Shown here: positions 1 through 22,747 of the stretch, in pieces | Layout of the letters: every line of letters begins with the position of its first letter | How positions within the stretch are numbered: position 1 is the stretch's first letter | Notes under the pieces: generated by a model | Told to the model about the DNA's origin: nothing | Seen by the model: only the letters and a program-made list of their open reading frames with translations | Database searches by the model: none | Made by a program: the position numbers and the translations under genes | Assembly (NCBI GenBank): GCA_963792415.1 | Contig: CAWBVY010000006.1 | Location: 192,001 to 256,000, forward strand | DNA: 64,000 nt | Direction of reading: 5' to 3' | DNA from: Candidatus Deferrimicrobiaceae bacterium | GTDB lineage: Bacteria > Desulfobacterota > Deferrimicrobia > Deferrimicrobiales > Deferrimicrobiaceae

Positions 1-2
1 CG

Positions 3-3000
3 ATGGACCGGGAAGACCTCGAGATCACCGACCTCCCGGGCCTTCCCGCCCTGCAGCAGATGATGCTGGACGGGACGATGCGGAAGCCGAAAGGGGTCGC
101 GCTCGTACAGGCGGACCGGCAGGGAAGGACGGTCGCCGACTACGAGGAGGCGTTCCGGGGAGAGTCCGTCCAGGCGGCCGACCCGGCGGACCGGAAATTC
201 GTCGACGTGCGGATGGCGGGCGACATCGCGGTGGTCACGCTCACCCGTCCGGATGCGCTCAACGCATTGAGCGAGGAGCTCCTTGCGCAGTTCGCCGCCG
301 TCGTCCGCGAAGCGGGGACCCTCGGCACGATCGGCGGCCGGACCGTCAAGGCGATCGTCCTCACCGGTGCCGGCCGCGCGTTCGTCGCCGGCGCGGACGT
401 CAAGGAGTTCCACGGGAAAACCGCCGACGTCGTCGACGCCTTGGCGTGGAAGAACATCTCCGTCTTCACGGAACTCGAAAACCTGCCCCTCCCCGTCGTG
501 GCCCTGGTCGACGGGTTCGCGCTCGGTGGCGGCAACGAGCTCGCGATGAGCGCGCATTACCGGATCGTGACCGAGAACGCCCTCCTCGGGCAGCCGGAGG
601 TGAAACTCGGGATCATCCCGGGGTACGGCGGAATGCAGCGCCTCCCCCGCCTGATCGGTCCGCGCAAAGCGGCGGAGATCTGCGTCAACGGGGAACCGGT
701 GGACGGCGGCACCGCCGTGGCGCTCGGGTGGGCCGACGAATTCGTCCCCTCCTCCGCGGCACTGAAGCGCGCGGTCGCCGCGGCGCGCGAATTCGCCGCC
801 GGCGGGCGCCCCGTGCCTCGCCGCGACTGGAACGCCCTGGCCGCCGGCGGGAAGGAAGAGCTGTCGCTCCTCCTCGCCCGCCCGGAAGTCCGTGCCATCC
901 TCGACGCGCCGACACCGGAAAAGGAGTCCGCGGGAAATCTGCGCGCGGCGCGCCTCGCGGCCGCGAGGGACGCACTGCTGGCGATGCGGCACGGTTTCGA
1001 GCATGGGTTCGATGAGGGGTTGCGCAACGACGCCCGGAAGTTCGGCGCCGTCGCCGCCTCGCCCGGCGGCCAGGAATGGGTGGGCCGCTTCCTCGCGAAG
1101 GACGCCGCCCAATCGTCGTTCCTGACGCTCCTCCCCCCGGGCGAGCCGGTCGGAGAGAGGCGGCCCCCGATCACGAAGAAGGCCCCGGGCGACCGCCCCA
1201 TCTCCTTCGTCGAGATCCGGGAGATCGCGGCGATCCTCAAGGAAAAGATCTCCTCCGGCGGCGTGACCTCCCTGCCGAAAAAGATCCTTGGCGACCTGGT
1301 TTCGCTCCTCAAGGACCGCCCGGCTCCCGCGATCCTGGCGGAGATCGACCCGGAACGATCCGGAGCCGTCGGCCCCCGGATCGCCTCGCTCCTCCAGAGG
1401 GGGAAGATCTCCGTGCGGGTGGTCGACCTCGGAGCGGACGAAGGGTTCCGCCGTGAAAACGCCCGGCCGACGTGCGAAGTCCTGCTCGTGGAGAAGAACG
1501 GGGAGGTCCTCTGGGAGGGGAAGAAGCGGTTCCGTAGCGAACCGGGGGCGTTCCCGCGCGTATTTCTCCCGAAGGCCTTCCTCGAGCGGAACGTCGCCCG
1601 CCCCAACGTCGTGTACCAGGCGATCGTCCACCCGATCCTCGAATACGTGTTCGGCTACCCGCACATGATCGCGGTCCTCTGCGAGTCGGGGTACAACGCG
1701 ACCCCCCGTGAAGGGGCCGGAAGCCTGAGCGACCTGAACCGGTACATCGCCGAAGGGGCCGGGAAGGACCGCGACTTCCCCTACTTCGACCGGATCCTCG
1801 TGGACGTCTACGAGCCGGAAGATTTCAGGAAGGAGGACCTGGCCAACTTTTTCAACGGCGACGAGGCGAAGGTCGGGGCCGTCCTTGCGCGGGCGCGGGA
1901 GATGGGGATCCGGTACCGTGAACGGGTCGCGGAGATCCGGGAGAGGGTGCGGGGAGAGATCGCAGCGGAACAGGTCGTCGCGGGGCGCGCGGCCCTCGAC
2001 GAGGGAGACGCCGAGCGGGCGCTTCACCTCCTCCGCAACCTGGTCCTCTCATCGGAAACGCCGTCGCCGCACCGGGAAGCGGCGGCGGACGCGATCGCCG
2101 TGGCCATCCGTTCCTACGCCCTCGGAGCCGATCCCGCGTTCGAGGGAGTGACCGTCGCCGACGGCGGGGTGGCCGTGGAAAGTTGGGCGGGCCCGCGGGC
2201 TCGCGATCTTTCCCGGCTGCTCTCCCTCGCCCTGTCCCTCGCACGAACCCCCGCCGGGAATGGTCCAAGGATCGGGGAATCGGTCGCGGACGGACCCGTC
2301 CCCCGCGTCGTCCACGTCGTCGGGGAACTCGAGCGACCCTCCGGGAAGTTCATCGACGGGAACGACGGCCTGCACTGGGTGTTCGAGAAGGGGTTCGTTC
2401 TCCGCCTTCTGTCCGGGATGGCCGAGGGAACCCTGGACGACGGGATTCCCGCGCTCCTCGCGTGCCGCCTCCTGAGGGACGCCTCCTTCCCGGACGAGAG
2501 ACTCTCGATCGAGCGGCAGTTCTCCGCCGCCGTCAAGGGGACCCTCGAGGCGTACCGCTTCTACCAGTCGCTCCCGGACGGGACGCGGAAGCAGATGGCG
2601 GAAACGTACGCGCGGCATCCCCCGGCCGACCCGCTTTTCCGTCTTTTCGCCTCGCTGGAGACGGAGGGGAATCCCGCACGCGCCAGCCACATGATCCGCA
2701 GCATGACGGCCCGAACCCACTCCTATCGGCACGTCCGGTACCCGGACACCGCCCTCGCGGGAAAGGTGGTCGTGATCACCGGGGGCGGCACGGGGATGGG
2801 ACGCAGCCTCGCCCTCGAGGCGGCGCGGCGCGGTGGAAACGTCGTCATCACCGGCCGGCGGCACGAACCGCTCCTGGAAACGAAGGCCGACATGGACGAC
2901 CTCATCCGCCACCTCGGTCTCACGAACCAGACCCTCTTCGTGCAGGGCGATGTGTCCGATCCGAAATACGTCGGGGACATGTTCGAGCGGATCGAGGTGG

Positions 3001-6000
3001 AGTTCGGCCGCATCGACGTTCTGTACAACAACGCCGGCGTCTCGGGCCCGGTGGTGTTCGGCTCCGCGTACGAGGAGGGCCATTTCGACGAGTACCGGGA
3101 GGCGGTCAACGTCCACCTCACCGGTTCCTGGATGGCGTCGCTCGAGGCGGCAAGGATCATGGAGGGGCAGCCGGGCGGCGGGACGATCGTCATGGTGGGA
3201 ACCTTCTACAGCGAGAGCATCCACCACCACGTCCTGCACGCCTACCCCGGTCGCCTCCCGTACACCTCCGCGCAGTCCGCCAAACTCGCCCTCGGGGATT
3301 ACCTCGCGTGGGCGCTCGCGGGAAAAACGATCACCGTGCTCTCCCTGAACCCGTCGGCGGTCTCCACGGAGCGGATCCAGCGGGGAAGCGGCGTCTTCGA
3401 CAAGGGATCGAAGGCGCGCGCCCGCATCGGTCGCAACGTCCCCCCGGAGGCGCTGGAGCGGGACACCCTCGAACGGACGGTGGGGCACGCCTTCGTCGAT
3501 CCCCGGGACTTCGCCGCCCTCGCGCTCGAGGTCGTCGAAGGGCCGTTCCGGAGGACGATCGGCGGGGTCCGTCTCCCGATGGGCGGCGTCACCTACGAGC
3601 AGCCGCCCGGCGTCTTCCCCTCCCCCGCCGCGCTCTCGCGGTATCCCGACCTGGTCGGCAAGGTCGCGCTGGTCATCGTCGCGGAAGCGCTGTCGGGCGA
3701 CGTTCCCCTGATCGAGTCGTCCGCGGCCGCGCTTGCGAGGTCCGGCGCCGACGTGATCCTCTCCGGCGGCCGGCCCGAAATCCTCGAGCCGGTCGCCCTG
3801 AAGATCAACGCGCGTGGCGGGGAAGGAACCGCCACGGTCTCCCCCGTCAACCTCTCCCACCCCGCCCAGGTGCAGGAACTGTTCGACAGCCTGCCGCGTA
3901 TCGACGCCCTCCTGTATTTCACCGGGAGCGTGGACTGGAAACGACCGCTGACGAACCTGCCGCACGACGAATGGACCGCGCGCGTCGACCGTTTCGGCTT
4001 GATCCCCCGGTTCCTCTGCTGGCAGGCGGAGCGGCGGATGGACCGGGACGGGACGGACGGGACCATCGTCCTGGTGGGACCGGATCTCTCCGGTGTCCCG
4101 ACGATCCGGGAGCGGAACCTCGTGCAGGTCTTCCAGGCGATGCTGCGCCCGGCGGTGGCGACCGAAGCCATGGAACGCGCGCTGATGCGAAAGGCGAACA
4201 CCGAAGGGACCGCGCCCGGCCCCGTGGCGAACGTGAATATCGGGCTCGTTCTTCCGGGTCGCACCGACGGGAGGAACCGGCAGGCCCGCCCCGAAGCGAC
4301 CGCCGCCTCCGTCCTCTGGTTCCTCGACGAAGGCAAGCGCGTCTCGGGGGCGGTTCTCCTGCCCGACGAGCAGAACGCGGTCGCTTCCCTGCCCCCCGAC
4401 CCGGTGGAAGTTCCGGGTACGGCATCGGGAAAGGTGGCCGTCGTAACGGGGGGAACCCGCAACCTCGGGAAGGAGATCTCCCTTCGGCTGGCGGCGGAGA
4501 AGGCGACGGTCATTATCGGAAGCCGGTATCCGCCGACGGGATCGCGGGATCCCGTGGAGGCCGAAAAGGCGCATGGGGAGTTCGCGGAGGCCGACGCTTT
4601 CCTGACGCGCATGCGACATTCCGGCGGACGCGCCGTGTGGGTGCACACGGACGTCACGATGCCCAGGAAAGTGCGTGCGTTGCTTCTTGAGGCACGAAAC
4701 CGGTTCGGCCGCATCGACCTGCTGGTGAACAACGCCGGCGCGGGCGGAAACTTCTCGCGGGTCGGGGAAGTGATGCGGGATCACCGCGACAATTTTACCG
4801 CGGTCCTCGCCGCGAACTTTCTGGGGCCCTGGGAGGCGGTCGTCGCCGCGCGGGAGATATTGCGTACCCAACCTCGCGGGGGCTCGATCGTCAACGTCTC
4901 GACCCATTACGCCGATCACCCGTACCTCTTCCGGACGATCTACACGGTGTCGAAAATTCTCTTGAAGGCGCTGTCAAAGGCCGCGCGCGGGGATCTGGCG
5001 GCCGACGGAATCTCCGTCACCGACGTCGCGCCGACGCTCATCGCCGGCCCGCGGATGGAGTGGGTGATGCGGAACTACGCCACGAAGTTCTCCGGCGGGT
5101 TCGACGATTTCCCGGACCTTTCCCCCGCCGTGCGCAAGGTTCTCACGGATCTTTTCCTCCGTTCCTTCGACGGCGCCCTGCCCGCGGGGGAGCGGGAAAC
5201 GGCCTCGACATCGTTCCTCGCCGCCCTCCGGGCCCGGAAGATGCCGAAAGAAGCGCGCGAACGGATCGAGTCGTGGTACCGGCGGATCGGTGAATGGTTC
5301 CGCTGCACGGTTCCCGCGGCCCCGCCCGGGAACGGGGAGGTGGCGGAGGCGGTGCTGTTCGCCGCCAAGGACGGGCGTTTCCTCGAAAATCCGTTCCTCT
5401 CGATCACCACCCTCCCCCCCTTCTCCTCGTTCCCGCCGTCGCCGGGGGCCAGGAAGGTCCTCTCCGGCGGCGAACCGGGCACGATCGTGTCCACCGGAGT
5501 CGCCGAGGCGGCGCACCGCCGCCTGCACGAGGCGCTCTCCGGGAAGGGGACCGCGCTGACGTCGCTGTCGGACGCCGGCTTGCCCGAGGGGCAGGCGCGG
5601 ATCGGCCGACCTTCCGGGCAGGCACCCGGACAAGGCGCCCGGGGCCGCGCGCAGGAGACGCAGCAGCGCACCCTCGACCTGTCCGATCCCCGCGTCGTCG
5701 AGCCGTGGCTCGACAACGCGCTCGTCGGCGGGCCGCCACCGACGTTCGTCGTTCTGATCGTCGGTCCCAGGGCGGGGGAAAAAGGGGTCCTCGACGGGAC
5801 CGGGGAAGATCGCCGGCAGTTCCTCGAAAGCGTCAAAAAAACCGTCACCCTGTTCGCCGAGTCCGCGCGCGCGGTGCGCGACGGTGGTCACCTCGTCGTC
5901 GTCGGGCCTCCGGAAACGACGGGAGAGGGGCAACTGATGCTGGCCGCGTTGCGGCAGACCGTCCGGACCTTCCTCGCCGAGCAGCACTTCCTCCCCGCGG

Positions 6001-6140
6001 CGAAAACCGTTCGCGTCTCCCTACTCGCCGGGCGCGGCCCTGGGGCGGAGCGGGAGACGGAGCGCGAGGTACTCGCGATCCTCGAAGGGGCGCAGCCCCC
6101 TCGTGTCGAACCTCTCCCGGTGGGGTACCCCCGCCCTTAG
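3..6140 (+). CDS. Giant multidomain acyl-CoA enzyme, probably 5'-partial: MDR/enoyl-CoA reductase-like C-terminal tail + enoyl-CoA hydratase + unknown insert + four SDR domains (malonyl-CoA reductase-like)
   Basis: Crotonase motifs AFVAGADVKE and GFALGGGNELA...GQPEVKLGIIPGYGG. SDR motifs TGGGTGMG/NNAGVSG/YPGRLPY (~2750-3600) and TGGTRNLG/NNAGAGG/YLFRTIYTVSK (~4420-5400), each followed by a degenerate Rossmann fold. Confidence 0.85.
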   Translation: MDREDLEITDLPGLPALQQMMLDGTMRKPKGVALVQADRQGRTVADYEEAFRGESVQAADPADRKFVDVRMAGDIAVVTLTRPDALNALSEELLAQFAAVVREAGTLGTIGGRTVKAIVLTGAGRAFVAGADVKEFHGKTADVVDALAWKNISVFTELENLPLPVVALVDGFALGGGNELAMSAHYRIVTENALLGQPEVKLGIIPGYGGMQRLPRLIGPRKAAEICVNGEPVDGGTAVALGWADEFVPSSAALKRAVAAAREFAAGGRPVPRRDWNALAAGGKEELSLLLARPEVRAILDAPTPEKESAGNLRAARLAAARDALLAMRHGFEHGFDEGLRNDARKFGAVAASPGGQEWVGRFLAKDAAQSSFLTLLPPGEPVGERRPPITKKAPGDRPISFVEIREIAAILKEKISSGGVTSLPKKILGDLVSLLKDRPAPAILAEIDPERSGAVGPRIASLLQRGKISVRVVDLGADEGFRRENARPTCEVLLVEKNGEVLWEGKKRFRSEPGAFPRVFLPKAFLERNVARPNVVYQAIVHPILEYVFGYPHMIAVLCESGYNATPREGAGSLSDLNRYIAEGAGKDRDFPYFDRILVDVYEPEDFRKEDLANFFNGDEAKVGAVLARAREMGIRYRERVAEIRERVRGEIAAEQVVAGRAALDEGDAERALHLLRNLVLSSETPSPHREAAADAIAVAIRSYALGADPAFEGVTVADGGVAVESWAGPRARDLSRLLSLALSLARTPAGNGPRIGESVADGPVPRVVHVVGELERPSGKFIDGNDGLHWVFEKGFVLRLLSGMAEGTLDDGIPALLACRLLRDASFPDERLSIERQFSAAVKGTLEAYRFYQSLPDGTRKQMAETYARHPPADPLFRLFASLETEGNPARASHMIRSMTARTHSYRHVRYPDTALAGKVVVITGGGTGMGRSLALEAARRGGNVVITGRRHEPLLETKADMDDLIRHLGLTNQTLFVQGDVSDPKYVGDMFERIEVEFGRIDVLYNNAGVSGPVVFGSAYEEGHFDEYREAVNVHLTGSWMASLEAARIMEGQPGGGTIVMVGTFYSESIHHHVLHAYPGRLPYTSAQSAKLALGDYLAWALAGKTITVLSLNPSAVSTERIQRGSGVFDKGSKARARIGRNVPPEALERDTLERTVGHAFVDPRDFAALALEVVEGPFRRTIGGVRLPMGGVTYEQPPGVFPSPAALSRYPDLVGKVALVIVAEALSGDVPLIESSAAALARSGADVILSGGRPEILEPVALKINARGGEGTATVSPVNLSHPAQVQELFDSLPRIDALLYFTGSVDWKRPLTNLPHDEWTARVDRFGLIPRFLCWQAERRMDRDGTDGTIVLVGPDLSGVPTIRERNLVQVFQAMLRPAVATEAMERALMRKANTEGTAPGPVANVNIGLVLPGRTDGRNRQARPEATAASVLWFLDEGKRVSGAVLLPDEQNAVASLPPDPVEVPGTASGKVAVVTGGTRNLGKEISLRLAAEKATVIIGSRYPPTGSRDPVEAEKAHGEFAEADAFLTRMRHSGGRAVWVHTDVTMPRKVRALLLEARNRFGRIDLLVNNAGAGGNFSRVGEVMRDHRDNFTAVLAANFLGPWEAVVAAREILRTQPRGGSIVNVSTHYADHPYLFRTIYTVSKILLKALSKAARGDLAADGISVTDVAPTLIAGPRMEWVMRNYATKFSGGFDDFPDLSPAVRKVLTDLFLRSFDGALPAGERETASTSFLAALRARKMPKEARERIESWYRRIGEWFRCTVPAAPPGNGEVAEAVLFAAKDGRFLENPFLSITTLPPFSSFPPSPGARKVLSGGEPGTIVSTGVAEAAHRRLHEALSGKGTALTSLSDAGLPEGQARIGRPSGQAPGQGARGRAQETQQRTLDLSDPRVVEPWLDNALVGGPPPTFVVLIVGPRAGEKGVLDGTGEDRRQFLESVKKTVTLFAESARAVRDGGHLVVVGPPETTGEGQLMLAALRQTVRTFLAEQHFLPAAKTVRVSLLAGRGPGAERETEREVLAILEGAQPPRVEPLPVGYPRP

Positions 6141-6141
6141 G

Positions 6142-7095
6142 TCAGACGTGGTTCCGCAGCATCAGTTCCACGGGGTGCGGGTTCAGGAACACCTGCCGGG
6201 CGAGGTAGGCAACGTCGTACTTGCGGACGTAATGACGGATCAGGGTGACGGGGACGACCAGCGGGACGAGCCGAAGGCGGTACTGGTTGATGACCTCTAT
6301 CATCTCCTGTTTTTCAGCACTTGACAGCATCTTCCTGAAGTATCCCATCATATGCGACAAGACGTCGGCGCACTTCTTCGGCGTCGCCTTGTGCGCCAGC
6401 GCCGCCATGAAGATCTCCTCGTATCTTGAATAGAGTGTCCCGAGGGGAAGGGTCTTCGCACCGGCGACAAGTCGACCCATCTCCTCGTAGTGCCCCCGGT
6501 CGTGGGAGAGAAGGAGGAGTTTGTGGTCCGTGTGGAAATCCACGAGCGCCCCGCGGGAGAGGGGGCGGGCGAGCAGGTCGCGGAAGCGCCGAAGGCAGAA
6601 GACCCGCTCGACGAACATCTCCCGTAGCACCGGGTCGGTAAGACGCCCCTCCTCCTCTACCGGGATCCTCGGGAATCGCTCCAGAAACATCCGGGTGAAG
6701 ACCCCGGCTCCCGTCCGCGCCGGGATTCCGTCGCCGGCCCCGTACACCTTCACCCGCTCCATTCCGGAACTCGGGGAATCCTTTTTGCAGATGTAACCGC
6801 ACAGGTCCAGGCCGGACAGTTCTTCCAGGCGGGCCTTTGCCCACCGCTCCATCTTTTCCGTGTGATCGACCCCGGTCCTGTTCGTGACCAGGCGCGGGTG
6901 GATCGGATCCCCTACGAGTCGCATCGCCTCGCGCGGGACGGGAAGCCCGCAGTCGACCTCCGGGCAGACCCGCACCCACTCGACAAAGGGGCCCAGCGTC
7001 TCGTTCAGGAAGAGGTCCCGCTTGTGCCCGCCGTCGTAGCGTACCTTCTCCCCCAGAAGACAGGCGCTGACGAGGACCTTGATCCGTTCCGTCAT
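6142..7095 (-). CDS. DUF523/DUF1722 (YbgA/RudS-like, thiouracil desulfidase-related) protein
   Basis: N-terminal VSACLLGEKVRYDGGHK, VCPEV and SPSSG motifs; C-terminal YbgA-like FHTDHKLLLLSH...HMMGYF...YLARQVFLNPHP. Confidence 0.85.
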   Translation of the reverse strand: MTERIKVLVSACLLGEKVRYDGGHKRDLFLNETLGPFVEWVRVCPEVDCGLPVPREAMRLVGDPIHPRLVTNRTGVDHTEKMERWAKARLEELSGLDLCGYICKKDSPSSGMERVKVYGAGDGIPARTGAGVFTRMFLERFPRIPVEEEGRLTDPVLREMFVERVFCLRRFRDLLARPLSRGALVDFHTDHKLLLLSHDRGHYEEMGRLVAGAKTLPLGTLYSRYEEIFMAALAHKATPKKCADVLSHMMGYFRKMLSSAEKQEMIEVINQYRLRLVPLVVPVTLIRHYVRKYDVAYLARQVFLNPHPVELMLRNHV

Positions 7096-7817
7096 TTTTC
7101 CACTCCCGCATCCGCTCCAAGGTAGGCGGCCCGGACCTTCGGATCCTCCCTCAGGTCGGACGCCTTCCCCTCGAGGGCGATCTCCCCCGCCTCGAGGACG
7201 TAGGCGCGGTCCGCGATGGCGAGGGCCATGGAGGCGTTCTGTTCGACGAGGAGGATCGTCGTTCCCGCCTTGTTGATCTCCCCGATCATCCGGAAGATCT
7301 CGCTCACCAGCACGGGGGACAATCCCATGGACGGCTCGTCGAGAAGGAGCAGGTCGGGCCGCTGGACGAGGCCCCTCCCGATGGCCAGCATCTGCTGCTC
7401 CCCTCCGGACAAGGTCCCGGCAAGCTGGCGCGTGCGTTCGGCCAGGCGGGGGAAAAGACCGAAGACCCGTTCAAAGCTCTCCTCCATCTCTTTTCCGGAG
7501 GAGCGGGTGTACCCCCCCATCTCGAGGTTCTCCCGGACGCTCATGTTGGCGAAGACGCCGCGACCCTCAGGGACATGAGCGATCCCCAGGCGCGCGATCC
7601 GATGGGACGGGAGACCCGCGATCGATTTCCCGTCGTGTGCGATGCTCCCCGCTTCGGTACGGACGACGCCGGAGATTGCCCGAAGGATGGTGCTTTTCCC
7701 TGCCCCGTTCGCACCGATCAGGGTGACGATCTCCCCTTTTCCGACGATGAAGGACACATTGCGGATCGCCTGGACCGATCCGTAATAAACGCTTATAGAA
7801 TCCACGTTTAACAGCAT
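7092..7817 (-). CDS. livF: Branched-chain amino acid ABC transporter ATP-binding protein
   Basis: Walker A GANGAGKST, HVPEGRGVF, LSGGEQQMLA, LLLDEPSMGL. Confidence 0.93.
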   Translation of the reverse strand: MLLNVDSISVYYGSVQAIRNVSFIVGKGEIVTLIGANGAGKSTILRAISGVVRTEAGSIAHDGKSIAGLPSHRIARLGIAHVPEGRGVFANMSVRENLEMGGYTRSSGKEMEESFERVFGLFPRLAERTRQLAGTLSGGEQQMLAIGRGLVQRPDLLLLDEPSMGLSPVLVSEIFRMIGEINKAGTTILLVEQNASMALAIADRAYVLEAGEIALEGKASDLREDPKVRAAYLGADAGVEK

Positions 7818-7833
7818 TCTGTCACCATATTTC

Positions 7834-8622
7834 TTATTTCTTATCTCTTGTCGCAGTCGTATCGTCCCTTTTCCCGAGGTACGCCTCGACCACCTTCGGA
7901 TTCCTCCGGATCTCCGCGGGAAGACCCCGGGCGATCACCTGTCCGAAGTCCATCACGATCAGCCGTTCACAGATCCCCATCACCAGGCGCATCTGGTGCT
8001 CGATCAGCAAAACGGTCAAGGAGAAGCGTTCCCGGATCCGGAGGATGAACTCCATCAGCGTGCCCACCTCGGAGGGGTTCATCCCCGCCGCGGGCTCGTC
8101 CAGGAGGAGGATCTTCGGGCGCGATGCGAGCGCGCGGGCGATCTCCAGTTTTCGCTGGTCGCCGTACGGGAGGTTCCTGGCGAGCTCCTTCCCGCGACCC
8201 TGGAGGGAAAAGATCGAAAGAAATTCCTCCGCCTCTTCCCGTGTCCGCCTCTCCTCCCGGTAGAACGCCCCGGTCCGGAGAAGCGCCGCGGCGGCCCCGT
8301 ACCGGACGTGCGAGTGGTGAGCGATCCGCACGTTGTCGACGACCGTCAGCTCCGGGAAGAGGCGGATGTTCTGAAAGGTCCGCGCGATCCCGCGGCGGGA
8401 GATCTGGTCCGACGGGAGCCCCGTGATCTCACCCCCCTCCAGCGAGACGGCGCCGCGGTCGGGGCCGTAGATGCCTGTGATGACGTTGAACAACGTGGTC
8501 TTTCCGGAACCGTTGGGGCCGATGATCCCCACGAGCTCGCCCCGCCCGAGGCGGAAATCGACCCCGTCGAGGGCCTTGATCCCCCCGAAGTGCCGGGTAA
8601 GCCCCTGGACCTCGAGGATCAC
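7834..8622 (-). CDS. livG: Branched-chain amino acid ABC transporter ATP-binding protein
   Basis: GPNGSGKTT, ARTFQNIRLF, LPYGDQRKLEIARALA, LLLDEPAAG; GTG start at 8622 overlaps the livM stop (GTGA). Confidence 0.92.
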   Translation of the reverse strand: MILEVQGLTRHFGGIKALDGVDFRLGRGELVGIIGPNGSGKTTLFNVITGIYGPDRGAVSLEGGEITGLPSDQISRRGIARTFQNIRLFPELTVVDNVRIAHHSHVRYGAAAALLRTGAFYREERRTREEAEEFLSIFSLQGRGKELARNLPYGDQRKLEIARALASRPKILLLDEPAAGMNPSEVGTLMEFILRIRERFSLTVLLIEHQMRLVMGICERLIVMDFGQVIARGLPAEIRRNPKVVEAYLGKRDDTTATRDKK

Positions 8623-9608
8623 CGGTACACCTTGCTCCGCAGGAACGGGAACTCCCGCACGCCGAACAGTCCCCTCGGCCGCACCAGCATGGTGACGATC
8701 AGCAGCAGGGGGATGAGGACCCAGCGGAACTCGATGTATTCGGGCGGGAGCGCGACGCGCATCCCCTCCAGCAGGAAGACCCAGGCGAAGGAGGCGACCA
8801 GCGTCCCGGTCAGGTTTCCCAACCCCCCGAGAACGACGATCATCAGCACGTCGAACGATTTCAGGAAATCGAAGGTGCTCGGGTGCAGAAACGTGTAAAG
8901 GTGCGCGTACAGTCCCCCCGCCACGCCGGCGAAGGCGCACCCGGCGGTGAAGCCGATCACCTTGTACCGGAACGTGTCGATCCCCAGCGCCGCGGCGGCG
9001 ACCTCGTCTTCCCGGATGGCGACGAGTGCGCGCCCGTAGGTGGAGTGGACGAGGTTGCGGATCACCAGGATCGCCGCGACGAGCCCGGCGACGGCCCAGG
9101 GGATTCCGGTCAGCCGCGCGATGCCGGTCATCCCGCGGGCGCCCCCCAGTTGCGGCAGGAAGGAGTCCGCGTTGTCGAAGAGGACCTTCATGATGACCCC
9201 GAACCCGAGCGTCGCGATGCCGAGGTAATCCGACGTCAGGCGGAGAGTGGGCAGGCCGACGGCGCACGCAAGGAGCGCGGCGGCAAAACCGCCGGCCAGA
9301 AGGGAACCGAGGAACACCGCCCCCGTCGCGAAGACCGCCTCGTCTCCGTACGCTCCCACGTAGAGTTTCGTCAGCAGCGCCGCCGTGTACGCCCCCACGC
9401 CGTAGAAGGCGGCGTGTCCCAGGGAGAACAGCCCCGTGAACCCGTAGATGAGGTTCAGGCCCAGCGCGGAGATCGCCACGACGCACGCGAGCTGGAAAAT
9501 CTGCACCCAGTACGGGTTCAGGATGTCGCGGGCGGAGAGGAACTGGAGCAGGCCGGAGAGGACGGCGAAGGGCAGGACCGCCTTGGCAATGTTCTTCAGG
9601 AAGGGCAT
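8619..9608 (-). CDS. livM: Branched-chain amino acid ABC transporter permease
   Basis: GFTGLFSLGHAAFYGVGAY, LRLTSDYLGIATLGF, GRALVAIREDEVAA; many TM segments. Confidence 0.92.
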   Translation of the reverse strand: MPFLKNIAKAVLPFAVLSGLLQFLSARDILNPYWVQIFQLACVVAISALGLNLIYGFTGLFSLGHAAFYGVGAYTAALLTKLYVGAYGDEAVFATGAVFLGSLLAGGFAAALLACAVGLPTLRLTSDYLGIATLGFGVIMKVLFDNADSFLPQLGGARGMTGIARLTGIPWAVAGLVAAILVIRNLVHSTYGRALVAIREDEVAAAALGIDTFRYKVIGFTAGCAFAGVAGGLYAHLYTFLHPSTFDFLKSFDVLMIVVLGGLGNLTGTLVASFAWVFLLEGMRVALPPEYIEFRWVLIPLLLIVTMLVRPRGLFGVREFPFLRSKVYR

Positions 9609-9618
9609 CGTCCCGCCG

Positions 9619-10503
9619 TCACACCTTTTCCGTCCGGGCCTTCCCGAGGATCCCGGTGGGCTTCCACAACAGCACGGCGATGAGGAGGACGAAGGCGATC
9701 CCGTCCCGGTAGGTGGACGACAGATACGCCGTGGTCATCGTCTCCGTTTCCCCCATGATCAGCGCCCCGAGGACCGCCCCCGGGATGGACCCGATTCCGC
9801 CGAGGACGGCGGCGGTGAACGCCTTCAGGCCGGGCATCACCCCCATGAAGGTGTTGATCTGGGGATAGGCGATCCCGTAGAGCACTCCCCCGACACCCGC
9901 GAGCGCCGCCCCGAGGCCGAAGGTGAAGGAGATCACGCCGTTCACGTTGACTCCCATCAGCCCGGCGGTGACGATGTCGTGGGAGACGGCGCGCATCCCC
10001 CGCCCCACCTTCGTCCGGTAGACGACATATTGCAGCGCCCCCAGGGAAGCGAGCGTGACGCCGAGGATGACCCCCTGGATGTTGGTGACCGTGATCCCGC
10101 CGATCTCGAGGGACACCACCTGGAAGGGACGCGGGAAGGCGTAATAGTTCGGCCCGAAGACCTGGTGGAGGGCGGTGAAATATTCCAGAAACAGGGAGAC
10201 GCCGATGGCGGTGATCAGCGCCGCGATCTTCGGGGCGTGCCGCAGCGGCCGGTACGCCATCCGCTCGATGACGATCGCGAGGATGGCGGACCCGCCCGCG
10301 GCGATCGCGAACACGGCGGGGAGCGGAAGGTGATATTTCTCGACGGAGTAGAACGCCAGGAACGCCCCGACCATGAAGACGTCGCCGTGGGCGAAGTTGA
10401 TGAGGCGCACGATGCCGTACACCATCGTGTACCCCAGCGCGATCAGGGCGTACACGAACCCGAGTTGTAGGCCGTTCAGCGCCTGCTGGAGAAAATATTC
10501 TAC
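9619..10503 (-). CDS. livH: Branched-chain amino acid ABC transporter permease (start uncertain)
   Basis: EYFLQQALNGLQLGFVYALIALGYTMVYGIVRLINFAHGD, KAFTAAVLGGIGS; conserved N-terminus extends upstream of the GTG at 10455. Confidence 0.9.
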   Translation of the reverse strand, partial: VEYFLQQALNGLQLGFVYALIALGYTMVYGIVRLINFAHGDVFMVGAFLAFYSVEKYHLPLPAVFAIAAGGSAILAIVIERMAYRPLRHAPKIAALITAIGVSLFLEYFTALHQVFGPNYYAFPRPFQVVSLEIGGITVTNIQGVILGVTLASLGALQYVVYRTKVGRGMRAVSHDIVTAGLMGVNVNGVISFTFGLGAALAGVGGVLYGIAYPQINTFMGVMPGLKAFTAAVLGGIGSIPGAVLGALIMGETETMTTAYLSSTYRDGIAFVLLIAVLLWKPTGILGKARTEKV

Positions 10504-10513
10504 GGTTCCACCC

Positions 10514-11650
10514 CTATGGGTTCACCATCTTCACGAATTTCTGCTTGCCGCCCTCGATCTTGAGGATTGCGGCGCTCTTGATCATGTCGCCGTTCGCATC
10601 CAGCGTCGACTTTCCGGAAACCGCCTTGAAGTCCTTTATCGAGGCCAGGGCATCGCGGATCTTCCTCGGGTCGTCGCTCCCGGCCTTGCGGATCGCCTCG
10701 AGGAGAATGTTCGTAGCGTCGTACGCAAGCGTCCCCAGGGCATCGGGGACCTGTCCGTGCTTCTTCCTGTACTTTTCCACCCACGCCGCCACTTCCGGCC
10801 GGCGGTCGTCCGGGGAGTAGTGGTTGGAGAAGTAGCCGCCTTCGATCGCGCTTCCGGCGATCTTCACCAGATCCGGGGAGTCCCACCCGTCCGGCCCGAC
10901 CAGCCGGACCTTGAGCCCCTTCTCCTGGACCTGCTTCGCGATCAGGCCGACCTTGTTGTAGTAGTCCGGCAGGAAGAGGATGTCGGCGCCGGAGGCTTTC
11001 ACCTTCGTCAGGAGTGCCGAGAAGTCGACGTCGTCCTTGCCGTACGAATCGAAGGCGGCCACCTTTCCGCCCTGCTTCCGGAAAGCGTCGCGGAACACCT
11101 CGGCGATCCCCTTCGAGTAGTCGTTCGACGCGTCGAACAGCACCGCGGCGCTCTTCCCCTTCAGGGTTTCGCGGGAGAACTTCGCCATCACGGCCCCCTG
11201 GAACGGATCGATGAAGCAGGCGCGGAACATGTAGTCTTTCCGCTTCCCGTCCGCCACCGTCACCTTCGGGTTCGTCGCCGTGGGCGATATCGCTGGAATC
11301 CTCGCCGACTGGATGATGTCGGAAACCGGGATCGTGGTCTTCGATGTGACCGATCCGACGATCGCCTTCACGCGCTGCTGGTTCACGAGGAGGTTCGCCA
11401 CGTTCGCCGCCTCCGTGGCGTCGTTCTTGTCGTCCTGGATGGCGTAGGTGATCTTCATCCCCGCGACGCCGCCCCTGGCGTTCGCCTCCTCGACGGCGAT
11501 GAGGAAGGAGTTGCGGACCGACTCGCCGAACGTCTTGACGTCGCCGGAAAGCGGCGTGATGAGGCCGATCTTGATCTCTTTCGCGTGGGAGGGGACGACC
11601 GCCACCAGGGGCGTAAAAAGAATGGCGAGAAGAAGGGATGCGCGCTTCAT
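10514..11650 (-). CDS. Branched-chain amino acid ABC transporter substrate-binding protein (LivK/LivJ family)
   Basis: Signal peptide; IKIGLITPLSG, SPTATNPKVT, FRACFIDPFQG, DFSALLTKVK; first gene of the liv operon. Confidence 0.92.
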   Translation of the reverse strand: MKRASLLLAILFTPLVAVVPSHAKEIKIGLITPLSGDVKTFGESVRNSFLIAVEEANARGGVAGMKITYAIQDDKNDATEAANVANLLVNQQRVKAIVGSVTSKTTIPVSDIIQSARIPAISPTATNPKVTVADGKRKDYMFRACFIDPFQGAVMAKFSRETLKGKSAAVLFDASNDYSKGIAEVFRDAFRKQGGKVAAFDSYGKDDVDFSALLTKVKASGADILFLPDYYNKVGLIAKQVQEKGLKVRLVGPDGWDSPDLVKIAGSAIEGGYFSNHYSPDDRRPEVAAWVEKYRKKHGQVPDALGTLAYDATNILLEAIRKAGSDDPRKIRDALASIKDFKAVSGKSTLDANGDMIKSAAILKIEGGKQKFVKMVNP

Positions 11651-18368: not shown

Positions 18369-19067
18369 CTGCAGGAAAAGCTGAAATTCCTCGTCAAGCC
18401 GCTCGTCTTTCTCTTCGCGTTCCTCGCTCTCAGTTTCGCCCTGTACCGTTTCGGCCTCTTCCACTTCTTCATGAACCGGGAGCGCCTGATCGCCTGGATC
18501 CACTCGCTGGGCGCGTGGGGATTCGCCGGATTCATCCTGCTGCAGGTGGTCCAGGTAGTGGCCGCGCCGATCCCCGGAGAAGCGACGGGTGTCCTCGGAG
18601 GGTATCTCTACGGGCCTGTTGTGGGAGTTGCGCTCTCCACCATCGGACTGACGATCGGGTCGTTCCTCGCCTTCAGCCTCTCACGCTTCTTCGGTCGCCC
18701 CCTGACCGAGAAGTTCGTCGACGCAAAGACGATGGAGCGGTTCGACTACCTGCTCCACCACAAGGGGGCGTTTCTCATCTTCCTGCTGTTCCTGATCCCG
18801 GGGTTCCCGAAAGATTACCTCTGCTACATCCTCGGGCTGGGGCATCTCACCACGCTCGAGTTTCTGACCATCGCCACCACGGGGCGCCTTCTCGGCACCA
18901 CGTTGCTCACGCTCGGGGGAACGTTCCTCAGGAACCACCAGTATTCCCGGTTCTTCCTGCTCAGCGGCGCGGCCGTGGTCGTCGTCTTCCTGACCATCGC
19001 CTATCGGGATCGCCTGGAATCCTTCCTGAAGTCCCTCCACCAGCGGTACGGTCGCCGGCGGAAGTAG
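18369..19067 (+). CDS. TVP38/TMEM64 (DedA/SNARE-associated) membrane protein; start uncertain (CTG 18369 or ATG 18471)
   Basis: QVVAAPIPGE, FLIPGFPKDYLCYILGL; hydrophobic in-frame extension upstream of ATG 18471. Confidence 0.85.
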   Translation: MQEKLKFLVKPLVFLFAFLALSFALYRFGLFHFFMNRERLIAWIHSLGAWGFAGFILLQVVQVVAAPIPGEATGVLGGYLYGPVVGVALSTIGLTIGSFLAFSLSRFFGRPLTEKFVDAKTMERFDYLLHHKGAFLIFLLFLIPGFPKDYLCYILGLGHLTTLEFLTIATTGRLLGTTLLTLGGTFLRNHQYSRFFLLSGAAVVVVFLTIAYRDRLESFLKSLHQRYGRRRK

Positions 19068-19115
19068 CCCGGCAGGCAGGGATCATCTCCGAACCGCACG
19101 CGCGCGCTCCACGGA

Positions 19116-22100
19116 TTACCGGATGCGGAAATCCACCCTGCTGTCCGATAGTTTCTCCTTCTTTTCCGGGGCGAGCGACTTCGGCTCCACCAGGAAAACC
19201 CTGCCCGGTTCGACCTTCCCGCCGACGAGGACCTGGTCGCGCGCGCGCGACGCCCGCTCCAGCGCGAGTTGACGGAGTTCGTCGTTCCCGACCCGTATGT
19301 TCGTCAGCATCAGTTTCTCCATCTCCGGGACGGGAATATCCTTCGCCATCCCGATGAAGTTGCGCGGCTTGGGGAACTTCTCTTCCTTGTAGGCGAGCGT
19401 CAGGAACCTGGGGTACTCCGAGGCGTCGACACGGACGTTGTCCGTCGCGGGCACGCTCTGCCCGGATTTCGCCAGGCTTTTCACCTTCTGCGCTGCCACT
19501 TTTCCGCGGAAGATCCTCTCCCGCAACGCTTCCTTGTCCCGGTCGGGGTCGACGTGCCCCTCGATCTCGAGTTTCAGCGCCGGGCGTTCGGTGAGAACCT
19601 TCACGAGGTTCCCCAGCTTCGCGATGCCCGGTGCGGGGATAACGGAGGACCCCGGGTCGAACTCGAGGTACGAAAGTTCCTCGCCTCCGCCGAAAACCGC
19701 CCCGAGCAGCGCGAACGGCGAGGTAGCCACCTTGACCAGCAGGTTTTTGACGATCTTCCATACAACCCCCAGGACGCTGAACTTCGGGTCCTCGAGCGAC
19801 CCCGTCACGGGGAGGTCGAGGTGGATCTCCCCGTTCCGGTCCTTCAGGAGCGCCACCGCGAACCGCACCGGGAGCTTCGTCGCGTCGGGGCTGTCCACCG
19901 CGTCGCCGAAGGTGAACTGGTCGAGGAAGACCTTGTTCTCCGAGTCGAGCTTCCTTTTCTCGATGTGGTACTTGAGGTTCAGGGTGAGTTTCCCTTTCTG
20001 GATCCCGTACCCGGCGTACCGTCCGGAATACGGAGACAGGGAGGAAAGGTCCATGTCCCGGAAATCCACCTTGAAATCGAGGAAGAGGTCCTTCGCCAGC
20101 GGGTTGATCTTTCCGACGATCTCCAGCGGCGTCGCGTTCCCCAACTTCCCGCGCAGGTCGACATCCGCGCGCGCGCTCTCCTCCGAGGAGAGGCCGGAGA
20201 CACGACCTCCCAGTTCCAAGAGGCTCGCCGAGTAGTTCGGCTTTATATATTGATCGCTGAAGTTCACGGTACCGCCGAGCAGCGTCACCGCGTCGATCCG
20301 GACGGGGACCCCGGGCGCCTGCGCCGCGTTGTCCGCGGGTGCGGCCGTCGCAGTTTTCAGGGCCGCGTTGTCCCGGCCTGCGCCGTCCTTCGCCACGATC
20401 CCCTGGACGTTCAGCGTGCCGTCCGGGCGCACGATGATGCGGGAATAGAAGTCCGTCAGGGAGATCTCCCGGATGGCGACGCTCGTCGGGTTGTACTTTA
20501 CGTCCACGCCCCCGAAGTGGAGGCTCGCGAACCTCAGGAACTCCTCCTCGAGGGCCTTGTCCAGTGAGGAGAAGTCGTTCACGGACACTTCCCCTCGGAA
20601 TCCGGCGCGCACCGGCTTCCCCTTCGGGGCATCCACCGAGACGTTCCCTTCGGCCGAGATCGATCCCCCCTGCAGGAGGATCTTCACCTTCCTCCGTGTA
20701 ATACGGCTGCATGGTCCCGATCGGAAGGGCTTTCGCCTGCAGCCTGCCGTTCACCGAAGGGGGATCGACCGTGAACGTACCGCCCAGGGAGATGCTCCCC
20801 TGTCGGTTATAGCCGGTGGCGAAGGAGAATTTCCCAGGTTTTTTCCCGTCGGTAGTGAGGTACTCCAACTTCAACCGAAGCCGGTCCAGGACGATCTCCA
20901 CCGGCGGATCCGTAGTCCGGTCCTCGAAGCTCACGGAGTACCGGTCGACGACGAATTCCTTGGCGATAATTCCCCACGGTTTCTCCGGCGGCTTTTGCTC
21001 GTCCGGTTTATCCCCTGACCTGATCGCGCTTACCATGCCCGTCGATTGCACACCTTCCGGCAGAAGACGGGTGACATTCATTTCGCCGCCGGCGGAACGG
21101 CGCACGAAAACCGATCCTTTCGCAGTTGAGATCCGGCCGAACGTAATCTCCTTCTTCCCCAGGTCGAGTTCGACCTCTTTCAGGGAGAACCCGGGGATTA
21201 CGAGGAACTCCTCCTTCTCCTCCCGTTTGCGCAGTCGAAGACCCGATGCGGACGCTTCCAATCCGGAGAGCCGGAAATCGTTCCTCCCCTCCACCCTGGC
21301 GAAACTGTAGCCGGACCGCGCGTCGAGGGAACCGGCGTCGACGTCGAACCGGACGGCGTCGGTGTAATACGGGGCGTATTTCTTCAGGACCATCTTCGCG
21401 AGGGATACCGTCCCTTCCGATCCGAGGGGCGAGAGGGAGAAGTTTCCCTTCAGTTCGACGTTCTCCCCCGCTTCGGTCGAAAAGGAGATCAGGGCGTCCG
21501 CCTTCTTCCCCGTCTCGGTGGTTACGTTGTCCACGTCGACCCGGAGTTCCCCCAACGCGGTCTTGAAAGGGGATCCAAGCGAAGCGTCGGAGAACCGCAC
21601 CTTCCCGCCGGTCAGCCGGATGGAATCAACGGCGAAACTCGGTTCCCTTACCCCCGGCTCCTCTTTCGGAGCGATCGTTTCCTTTTTTTCCTCTACATCG
21701 CTTTCCTTTTGTTTTTCAGGAAGTAACGATAAGAGGTTCAACTTTCGATTGATATCTATGGAGGCGTCGATTTCGGGGTCCCGCACCTCGAGGGACGCCA
21801 GGTGGAAATCGCGTGCGATAAGGTCCGACGGGGAGATCGCCGCCTTCACCATGGGGAGGTGAACCATGGGACTCTTGTCGCTTCCCCGAGACGCGGACCT
21901 CCCTCAGGACCACGTCCCCCTCCGCAGAGAGGGTGGGTGGCTTGTCCTTGTACTGCGTGAAGGAAAGTACCGCCTTCACGTCCAGGAAAGCGGAAGGGAT
22001 CTCGTAATCCCGCTGCACCGGGACATATTCGAGATAGTGCGGGATGTCGAAGTCCGAGATGTTCAGATCGAAGGTGGTTTCCATCGACTCGCTGAACGGC

Positions 22101-22747
22101 TTGGTCTTTCCCTGGATCGAGATCTGCTTGCCGTTCACCACCGCGGAGAAGGACGGGTGCACGTACCGGTCGACGTGATACCGGAGATTCGACAGGAACG
22201 GGATGCCGACCTGGATCCCCCGGATCTCGTGGTTGGTGTTCTTCGGACCGTCGTCGAAGTCGACGCCCCCGTCGACGATTTGAATATTATTAAGGGAATA
22301 CTTTAACGGAGAGCTTTTTTCTTTCTGTCTTTTCTTTGAATCCTCAATCAGATCTGAGAAGTTATAGGACCCGTCCGGATGCCGGACGATGTTCACGTAG
22401 GGCCGGGAGAGCCGGACCTCGCTGAGCACGGGGCCACCGCGGATGACCGAAGCCAGTTGAAGGTTCCCGAAGATCTCTTCCGCGGAAACCCAGGTTCCCG
22501 GGGCGTCCCGCTCCAAGATCGAAAGCCCACGGACGGAGATGGTGAGCACAAGCGGGTTCACCCGAATTTGCCGGAGCTCCACCCTCCGGTGGAGGGTCTC
22601 GGAGAGATTCCTTGAAAGGACGGATTTGAGGATGGGCGGGAGGGCGAAAAACCCGAAGAGGGTGTAGACCAGGAAAGCGGCCCCCGCCGCGATCATCCCC
22701 TTCCGTACCGCGGGTTTCGACCAGACCTTCCGCAGCCATCCCGACAT
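19116..22747 (-). pseudogene. DUF748 / AsmA-like envelope protein with C-terminal OmpA-like domain, split by two +1 frameshifts (pseudogene or sequencing error)
   Basis: Three consecutive frames (22747-~21880, ~21880-~20691, ~20690-19116) give one coherent protein: N-terminal TM anchor, LSPYSGRYAGYGIQKGKL, LLKDRNGEIHLDLPVTGSLEDPKF, C-terminal LEIEGH...RVDF. Confidence 0.8.

Follow-up and report, generated by a model that had tools for sequence, protein, structure and literature searches.

A predicted multi-enzyme of Deferrimicrobiaceae joins malonyl-CoA reductase-like modules to hydratase and reductase domains

The 3-hydroxypropionate (3-HP) bi-cycle has malonyl-CoA reductase (MCR) as its key enzyme, which is also the workhorse for producing 3-HP biologically. 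In the bifunctional enzymes of Chloroflexus, Roseiflexus and Porphyrobacter (PDB 8hjw, 8hi4-6 and 6k8s-w), four domains with a short-chain dehydrogenase/reductase (SDR) fold follow each other in tandem, a catalytic domain and then a pseudo-domain, twice over, with the alcohol-forming pair (SDR1-2) at the N-terminus and the aldehyde-forming pair (SDR3-4) at the C-terminus. Propionyl-CoA synthase (PCS) carries an enoyl-CoA hydratase (ECH) and a Ccr-type enoyl-CoA reductase (ECR) in one chain, in the order N-terminal AMP-forming ligase, ECH, ECR; we take PDB 6eqo, a chain of 1,850 residues whose PDB file says acetyl-coenzyme A synthetase, to be this enzyme. Here we describe a gene of a Candidatus Deferrimicrobiaceae bacterium (GCA_963792415.1, contig CAWBVY010000006.1) whose product seems to combine MCR with two parts of PCS, the hydratase and the reductase. 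The window, that is the whole stretch of DNA that was analysed, is 64,000 nucleotides long and corresponds to positions 192001-256000 of the contig. We read the protein, a conserved chain of 2,582 residues in which MCR-like modules are fused to a hydratase, to a Ccr-like reductase and to a further domain, as a new arrangement, and our literature search on Deferrimicrobium, on MCR fusion, permutation and structure, and on PCS returned no description of a permuted or fused MCR family.

The RfxMCR study (PMC10470521) provides the reference points for the active sites. In RfxMCR a YxxRxxY motif binds the carboxylate of the malonyl group or of malonate semialdehyde. In the N-terminal half (MCR-N), Ala mutants of Thr165, Tyr172, Arg175, Tyr178 and Lys182 cripple the enzyme. 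In the C-terminal half (MCR-C), Ser731 is named as catalytic, the K753A mutation abolishes activity, and an extra domain carries CoA-binding residues.

The open reading frame (ORF) lies in frame +3 and spans nucleotides 3-6140 of the window, where it encodes residues 538-2582 and the stop codon on the + strand. The first-pass annotation of this DNA had flagged positions 2750-6137 as two MCR-like halves in reversed order. The flagged feature does lie inside the ORF, and all the motifs quoted for it were located there at the places given, but the ORF does not start within the window: its ATG is found 1,611 nt upstream, at contig position 190392, with a GGAGG 8 nt 5' of it. The full ORF (contig positions 190392-198140, equivalent to L004:1392-9140) encodes the 2,582-residue product P0002, of which the flagged feature is the C-terminal 1,130 residues. 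Exactly the same length is found in 14 database homologues. Along the chain the domain order is Ccr-like ECR, ECH, a domain that we call X, a first SDR pair (S1 and psi-S2) and a second SDR pair (S3 and psi-S4), all on the + strand.

An AlphaFold (AF2) model of window positions 2700-6137, built from a 24-row alignment, folds into four Rossmann domains (pLDDT 83.4, pTM 0.76). S1, the SDR1 of the first-pass annotation (residues 1453-1745, positions 2748-3626, model residues 23-307), is a catalytic SDR whose active site is arranged as in MCR-C, and its clade has an SH-aLRT support of 98-99. It is followed by psi-S2 (residues 1746-2005, positions 3627-4406, model residues 322-554), a Rossmann-like pseudo-SDR. 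S3, the former SDR3 (residues 2006-2345, positions 4407-5426), is a catalytic SDR with a full MCR-N-type site and a family-specific helical insert of ~110 residues (helices at model residues 784-894), and psi-S4 (residues 2346-2582, positions 5427-6137, model residues 926-1128) is again a pseudo-SDR. Direct reading of the sequence agrees with this alternation: S1 and S3 retain TGxxxGxG, NNAG and a Tyr-based site, while both pseudo-domains are devoid of the Gly-rich cofactor motif and of YxxxK. In S1 the motifs start at positions 2778 (TGGGTGMG), 3027 (NNAGVSG), 3240 (AYPGRLPYTSAQ) and 3576 (PMGGVTYEQ), and in S3 at 4446 (TGGTRNLG), 4728 (NNAGAGG) and 4896 (VSTHYADHPYLFRTIYTVSK); TGGGTGMG and NNAG are conserved among the homologues.

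In structural searches with VIA-align every listed row fell on the first half of the model (S1-S2). Model residues 14-555 superposed on MCR-C (6k8u_B) with Z 33.9, a root-mean-square deviation (rmsd) of 2.8 and 498/660 aligned, and on MCR-N (8hi6) with Z 33.5, rmsd 2.8 and 496/534 aligned. Taken together, the matches to both MCR halves spanned Z 32-34 and rmsd 2.8-3.1 over 488-503 aligned residues, whereas single-domain SDRs reached Z ~30 and covered one domain only. We therefore consider S1-S2 a catalytic plus pseudo module of the MCR type, and the model supports the view that the whole region is a tandem of four MCR-like domains with the SDR fold, catalytic and pseudo in alternation. In structural alignment the identity between these SDR domains and those of MCR is 18-21%, and they form their own clades.

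The active site of S3 is a complete one of the MCR-N type. A phmmer search against the PDB placed S3 on residues 5-214 of MCR (8hjw; 55.6 bits), and its site (positions 4896-4955), with T2171, Y2178, R2181, Y2184 and K2188, follows the pattern T-x6-Y-x2-R-x2-Y-x3-K with spacing identical to that of MCR-N. All five residues that are sensitive to Ala mutation in RfxMCR-N are retained, and the motif occurs in 92 of the 98 database homologues. As in MCR, YxxRxxY is present in both catalytic domains, S1 and S3, where it is invariant, and both also have the Arg after strand B that is an NADPH 2'-phosphate ligand in MCR. In S1, Thr1604 (positions 3201-3203; invariant as T168 in alignment A1) stands where MCR-C has its catalytic Ser731, and the segment YPGRLPYTSAQSAK (positions 3243-3284) holds the putative carboxylate-binding pair Tyr1618 and Arg1621, the catalytic Tyr1624, and then Gln1628 and Lys1631. 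The protein probably works like MCR.

Upstream of the SDR region, two further domains recall PCS. The ECH domain (residues 602-904, positions 195-1103) matches PF00378 with 141.9 bits and has both of the catalytic Glu motifs, GGGNELAM at residue 712 and QPEVKLG at residue 734; its second-best PDB match is 5zai, a 3-hydroxypropionyl-CoA dehydratase (E 1.4e-34). Nearly all of the Ccr-like ECR (residues 1 to ~560) is encoded upstream of the window; the domain was recognised through TIGR01751 and Ccr structures: it scores 172.5 bits against TIGR01751 on residues 28-348, below the cut-off of 378.55, and 126 bits against the Ccr structure 4gi2, with a medium-chain dehydrogenase/reductase (MDR) fold. 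According to PMC6628652, the CO2 pocket of KsCcr comprises Asn81, Phe170, Glu171 and His365. Candidate counterparts are the N of GPNFN, the YE of GYET (Phe or Tyr, then Glu) and the H of GSH. Of 33 full-length homologues, 33, 33 and 32, respectively, keep these pocket-like motifs, which align with M. extorquens Ccr and AntE; their equivalence to the KsCcr numbering comes from the motifs and not from a direct alignment with 6owe. The domain is like Ccr/ECR (PDB 4gi2, 6owe) in its MDR fold and perhaps in its conserved CO2-pocket-like motifs, and unlike Ccr in its score below the TIGR01751 cut-off, in its fusion to other domains and in an extra degenerate Rossmann-like segment at residues ~355-420. 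This second segment (RRVLVWGADRTAREF...) was noticed within residues ~350-540 (contig positions 191440-192010), just upstream of the window. Residues 248-349 and 421-536 both align to ~272-388 of Ccr/AntE, which suggests that part of the cofactor subdomain has been duplicated within the domain.

Compared directly with 6eqo, the ECH aligns from residues 74-367 to 905-1203 and the ECR from residues 23-498 to 1246-1735. The protein therefore resembles PCS in combining an ECH and a Ccr-type reductase in one chain, and differs from it in the absence of a ligase, in the order ECR-ECH and in the MCR-like modules that follow.

Between the hydratase and S1 lies domain X (residues 927-1449, positions 1170-2738), ~520 conserved residues with no family or fold match. 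Its model is of good quality (pLDDT 84.9, pTM 0.79), and the fold searches used the whole domain. There was no Pfam match, Foldseek gave 0 matches at E<=0.001 against the PDB (best E 0.06), and the Foldseek-independent VIA wide search stayed at background level, its best row reaching Z 9.4 over residues 166-319 and the other rows lying on one helical hairpin. Searches of the ESM Atlas with domain X and with its His/Cys/Glu-rich part returned no usable match, and a word-based search returned only fragments of the same family (48 matches). The first half of X contains a set of invariant polar residues (R95, R99, E103, H154, E158, H165, C171, E172, N190, D202, Y205, R208, Y214 and E215 in the numbering of alignment A2), a cluster that looks like an active or metal site. 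In two giant relatives, P0228 and P0221, the C-terminal third of X can be recognised immediately upstream of S1, so that this third belongs to the S1 module.

Database proteins that are 84-95% identical carry the names Candidatus Deferrimicrobium or Deferrimicrobiaceae, and the homologues are named only 'SDR family oxidoreductase' or 'enoyl-CoA hydratase'. By length, the 98 homologues fall into 33 of at least 2,500 residues, 44 short forms of 1,600-1,700 residues and a remainder that is truncated or intermediate. The 1,670-residue short forms begin at domain X, whose KAPGD motif stands at the very start of 43 of the 44. In a search of whole genomes, 36 of 61 proved to carry the gene, including the one that contains the window. 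Excluding that genome, it occurs in 24 of 27 genomes of the same genus, 30 of 36 of the family and 5 of 7 of the sister family; it was found in none of 17 genomes from other families of the phylum. A gene for a type III polyketide synthase (chalcone-synthase-like, a user of malonyl-CoA; L011 (G038:C38) 728-1843, + strand) was seen ~6 kb upstream of a short-form gene in the sister family.

Split and giant forms tie the two parts of the protein together. In genome G032 the ECR-ECH part is a gene of its own (905 residues, 70% identical) and ends 1 nt before the start of a 1,671-residue gene that covers X and S1 to psi-S4 (minus strand; L012 (G032:C12) 3848-8863 and 8865-11582). Liv-type ABC transporter genes lie near these split genes, as they do in the window (7092-9486). 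More distant relatives include stand-alone proteins of ~1,100 residues (P0222-P0224, 30-33% identical) and giants of 4,553-6,910 residues, and in an exhaustive HMMER search distant proteins retained the order S1 then S3. P0225 (6,910 residues, with a Chlamydiota name) has the order ECR-ECH-S1-S3, and so has P0234 (4,553 residues), with an AMP-binding ligase and an ECH_2 domain (hydroxyisobutyryl-CoA-hydrolase-type) upstream. These giant multi-enzymes look like whole pathways in one chain, and together the adjacent split genes and the giants may be taken as Rosetta-stone evidence for a functional linkage of ECR-ECH with the MCR-like modules. S1-type and S3-type domains were also seen in P0228 (5,572 residues), in P0221 (5,945 residues, named PEP carboxykinase by JGI), in P0262 (3,200 residues, with ECH_2 and a triosephosphate isomerase domain) and in P0280 (1,475 residues, with a phosphoribulokinase/uridine kinase domain).

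What reaction could such a protein carry out? With moderate confidence, we propose a reduction that turns malonyl-CoA into 3-HP at the expense of NADPH, coupled to the dehydration of 3-HP-CoA and the reduction or carboxylation of acryloyl-CoA. The sequences themselves show the domain architecture, the conservation of the motifs, the fusion and fission of the genes and their distribution; the substrates, the direction and the roles of Lys1631 and X are what we infer here. S1 would reduce malonyl-CoA to malonate semialdehyde with NADPH, by means of Thr1604, the pair Tyr1618-Arg1621, Tyr1624 and Lys1631, and S3 would reduce malonate semialdehyde to 3-HP. The latter would then be converted to 3-HP-CoA by a separate ligase, a CoA transferase or X. 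Subsequently, the ECH would form acryloyl-CoA from 3-hydroxypropionyl-CoA, and the Ccr-like domain would either reduce acryloyl-CoA to propionyl-CoA or carboxylate it to methylmalonyl-CoA. An activating enzyme in trans and an onward path to succinyl-CoA are plausible, because the genome encodes two methylmalonyl-CoA mutase matches, a carboxyltransferase of the PCC type, six CoA transferases of family III and at least ten AMP-binding enzymes. A stand-alone ECH paralogue, 42% identical, lies ~4 kb from one of the methylmalonyl-CoA mutase genes (contig positions 88871-89389 and 83877-85412).

Several observations weigh against this proposal. P0002 has no ligase domain (no PF00501 match at E<=1), and a tblastn search with the ligase region of P0234 found no match in the genome itself at E<=1e-5. 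Among the neighbouring genes (tRNA synthetase, pilins, Sir2/CobB, ABC transporter, MutY-like) there is no pathway partner, and three sister-family genomes have the short form without a specific ECR-ECH partner. Additionally, the published Deferrimicrobium genome analysis reports no key enzymes of a 3-HP pathway. Nonetheless, the protein points to an unrecognised 3-HP route in a lineage of iron reducers. The fusion and fission of ECR and ECH, together with the ligase in one giant, hint at a complete route from malonyl-CoA to propionyl-CoA or methylmalonyl-CoA in anaerobic iron reducers. A bolder version, which we regard as a long shot, is that the single chain could carry malonyl-CoA all the way to (2S)-methylmalonyl-CoA, with S1 and S3 producing 3-HP, X acting as a new CoA-transferring activator, the ECH producing acryloyl-CoA and the Ccr-like domain performing a reductive carboxylation. 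If true, the synthetic HOPAC-type route would have an equivalent in nature, and Deferrimicrobia would possess an ATP-sparing conversion of acetyl-CoA and two CO2 to succinyl-CoA.

The strongest competitor of the malonyl-CoA proposal, in our opinion unlikely but to be taken seriously, keeps the chemistry and changes the substrate (methylmalonyl-CoA to 3-hydroxyisobutyrate, or succinyl-CoA to 4-hydroxybutyrate) or reverses the direction, so that acrylate or propionate would be broken down through 3-HP and malonate semialdehyde. Indeed, our substrates are deduced solely from motifs shared with MCR, and Ccr-type enzymes and crotonases accept C4 substrates. The ECH_2 domain of the giant P0234 would suit such a pathway, as would the branched-chain-amino-acid-type ABC transporter that is encoded just downstream and also beside the split genes of G032, although in the window the transporter is on the opposite strand. 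Against this reading speak the YxxRxxY geometry and the spacing of the S3 site, which equal those of MCR-N, where they grip a C3 semialdehyde. So do the NADPH 2'-phosphate-binding Arg in both catalytic SDRs and the fact that Ccr-type reductases act reductively.

Another question regards which module corresponds to which half of MCR. According to the first-pass annotation S1 is the C-half and S3 the N-half, so that the order would be reversed with respect to the known enzymes; we regard this assignment as likely to be correct. By motifs and PDB alignment the aldehyde-forming-type module does come first here, unlike in MCR. In a phmmer search against the PDB, S1 fell on residues 571-780 of the 1,219-residue MCR chain 8hjw (43.4 bits), with YPGRLPYTSAQ opposite YPNRADYAVSK. 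S1 and the canonical C-halves have in common an insertion of 7-8 residues between the catalytic Ser/Thr and YxxRxxY, which MCR-N, S3 and generic SDRs do not have. Ser/Thr and the first Tyr are 12 apart in canonical C-halves and 14 apart in S1, against 7 in both canonical N-halves and S3. S1 further shares with MCR-C the YP-x-R motif, PxGG-x2-YE and an invariant Arg soon after strand F, which in S1 lies near the position of RfxMCR Arg799 (R240 of alignment A1). The pseudo-domains agree with the assignment: in hhalign, psi-S4 scored 50.0 (prob 91.4) to canonical SDR2 and 17.0 (prob 0.4) to SDR4, and psi-S2 had a weak preference for canonical SDR4 (54.6, prob 93.6, 172 columns) over SDR2 (48.0, 105 columns).

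On the other hand, S1/S2 and S3/S4 could be independent and old di-SDR lineages, in which case there would be no permutation and the roles might even be swapped, with S3 acting on the CoA ester and S1 on the aldehyde. We consider this rather improbable; the following results either favour it or do not support the first-pass assignment. S1 scores higher with an unrelated SDR (4dyv, 74.8 bits) than with MCR-C, so its special closeness to the C-half did not come out cleanly. In hhalign, S1 aligns better and further to SDR1 of MCR-N (271, 250 columns) than to SDR3 of MCR-C (242), and S3 is tied between SDR1 (241) and SDR3 (243). The structural Z-scores given above are also tied, and MCR-N chains align nearly in full to model residues 14-555. 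A 73-row domain tree separated canonical N, canonical C, S1-type, S3-type and generic SDR domains into five clades with good support and did not resolve their mutual relations. For approximately unbiased (AU) tests we used a 40-row LG+G4 tree, from which the near-duplicate P0042, the long or odd rows P0225_4757, P0280, P0248, P0233, P0262 and P0223_7, and half of the canonical and outgroup rows were left out. None of five groupings was rejected in the 40-row tests (p-AU: S1 with canonical C, 0.255; S3 with canonical N, 0.364; S1 with canonical N, 0.347; S3 with canonical C, 0.289; S1 with S3, 0.456). In the best 40-row tree canonical N and canonical C join each other (support 66), and S1 and S3 stand apart; therefore, on that tree, S1 and S3 would be separate lineages and not the product of a permutation. 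Finally, S1 is devoid of the ~160-residue extra domain of MCR-C, its segment between strands F and G measuring ~70 residues in the model, and the long insert between these strands sits in S3 instead.

This last point, which would favour swapped roles, loses weight on inspection of the insert: it is helical and family-specific, does not align to the MCR extra domain, and is replaced by a short, ordinary SDR tail in the S3 of P0223. As to independent origins, the loop insertion, YP-x-R, the Arg after strand F and PxGG-x2-YE tie S1 to MCR-C, and psi-S4 clearly favours SDR2. What stands of the reversed order is thus the evidence of active-site motifs and pseudo-domain profiles; the tree, AU tests, catalytic-domain profiles and Z-scores do not discriminate, and the missing extra domain counts against it. 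'Permuted MCR' is a fair description of the active sites, but a permutation as an evolutionary event is putative. The cluster of a canonical representative, P0260, is named malonyl-CoA reductase by its source. We have not filed P0002 as an MCR orthologue, because three defining features of MCR fail, namely the module order, Lys753 and the extra domain; the fusion to ECR, ECH and X is a further difference.

The second of these features had been noticed at first sight, when S1 was described as having YxxxQ in place of YxxxK and as altered in mechanism or inactive. The Gln is indeed encoded: positions 3261-3284 read tac acc tcc gcg cag tcc gcc aaa (YTSAQSAK), with Gln1628 as CAG (3273-3275) at Tyr+4 and Lys1631 as AAA (3282-3284) at Tyr+7. 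MCR SDR3 has the triad Ser731-Tyr749-Lys753 with Tyr743-Arg746; S1 keeps both Tyr and the Arg, has Thr for Ser (MCR-N has Thr as well), and has Gln1628 at the position of Lys753. The motif YPGRLPY-x3-Q-x2-K occurs in 97 of the 98 database homologues (58-95% identity), the sole miss, P0100, being truncated, and Y182, P183, R185, Y188, Q192 and K195 are invariant in alignment A1, which includes the relatives at 30-33% identity. In the C-halves of 16 of 16 canonical MCR-like representatives Tyr+4 is K and Tyr+7 is Q, whereas in 11 of 12 S1-clade domains, down to 30-39% identity, Tyr+4 is Q and Tyr+7 is K (the exception, P0248, is degenerate there). The difference is thus a reciprocal K/Q swap between two positions that are separated by one helical turn and point to the same side of the helix. 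The Lys has gone from Tyr+4, but it was not simply lost, and we suggest that the general-base partner of S1 was relocated from Tyr+4 to Tyr+7.

Such a relocation has working precedents on both sides, because 'divergent' SDRs have the active site YxxMxxxK (Tyr-x6-Lys) and 'complex' SDRs have YxxxN (as listed in Table 3 of PMC2792337). S1 resembles the divergent SDRs, such as the FabI-type enoyl reductases, in the Tyr-x6-Lys spacing only: its cofactor motif is the classical TGxxxGxG (TGGGTGMG) and not GxxxxxSxA, and it clusters with MCR-like domains and not with FabI. Since K753A abolishes the activity of RfxMCR, the exchange must matter mechanistically, and the Gln might disable the domain should Lys1631 lie out of reach of the site. 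S1 might then be a dead scaffold, S3, ECH and ECR being the only enzymes in a chain that already harbours two pseudo-SDRs. We find this quite improbable. Unlike psi-S2 and psi-S4, S1 keeps TGxxxGxG, NNAG, the Thr, YxxRxxY, the Tyr and an invariant Lys at +7 across ~100 homologues, and its site is kept in relatives at 30-39% identity. The conservation pattern of Q and K argues for a relocated Lys rather than a dead S1, and to call the domain altered or inactive was an overstatement.

A sequencing or assembly error behind the Gln, or a chimeric assembly behind the long ORF, can be dismissed in view of the 97 homologues that carry the Gln, the ~2,600-residue open frames in at least 20 other genomes and the matching DNA and RNA-library contigs, one of which (X17 record 29, from an RNA library) covers positions 3226-3376 with 0 differences. 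In three RNA libraries, contigs reach 29, 24 and 18 of the 30 bins of window positions 1-6400, for which DNA carry-over is possible and no expression level is given; we consider this coverage weak evidence for the proposed function. As a deep-branching family with another module order, no extra domain and a relocated Lys, these proteins would offer new sequence space for engineering, and they represent a natural experiment on the roles of the Lys and of the extra domain.

The surroundings of the gene offer some minor observations. Its 3' end is marked by a convergent neighbour that encodes a 2-thiouracil desulfurase/DUF1722 protein (positions 6142-7095, - strand), which according to our reading of the neighbourhood is outside the system. 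Just upstream of the big gene lie a 374-residue ORF without a family match (L004 7-1131, + strand) and a gene for a Sir2/CobB-type NAD-dependent protein deacylase (L003 11909-12688, - strand); CobB enzymes commonly regulate acyl-CoA synthetases. A 1,420-residue ORF without a Pfam match (L003 7248-11510, - strand) adjoins type IV pilin-like genes (N_methyl/PilW, Ig-like domain protein). Finally, two adjacent DUF748 ORFs of 968 and 343 residues (window positions 18961-22747, - strand) match successive parts of the 1,037-position DUF748 model and could be one split or mis-started gene.

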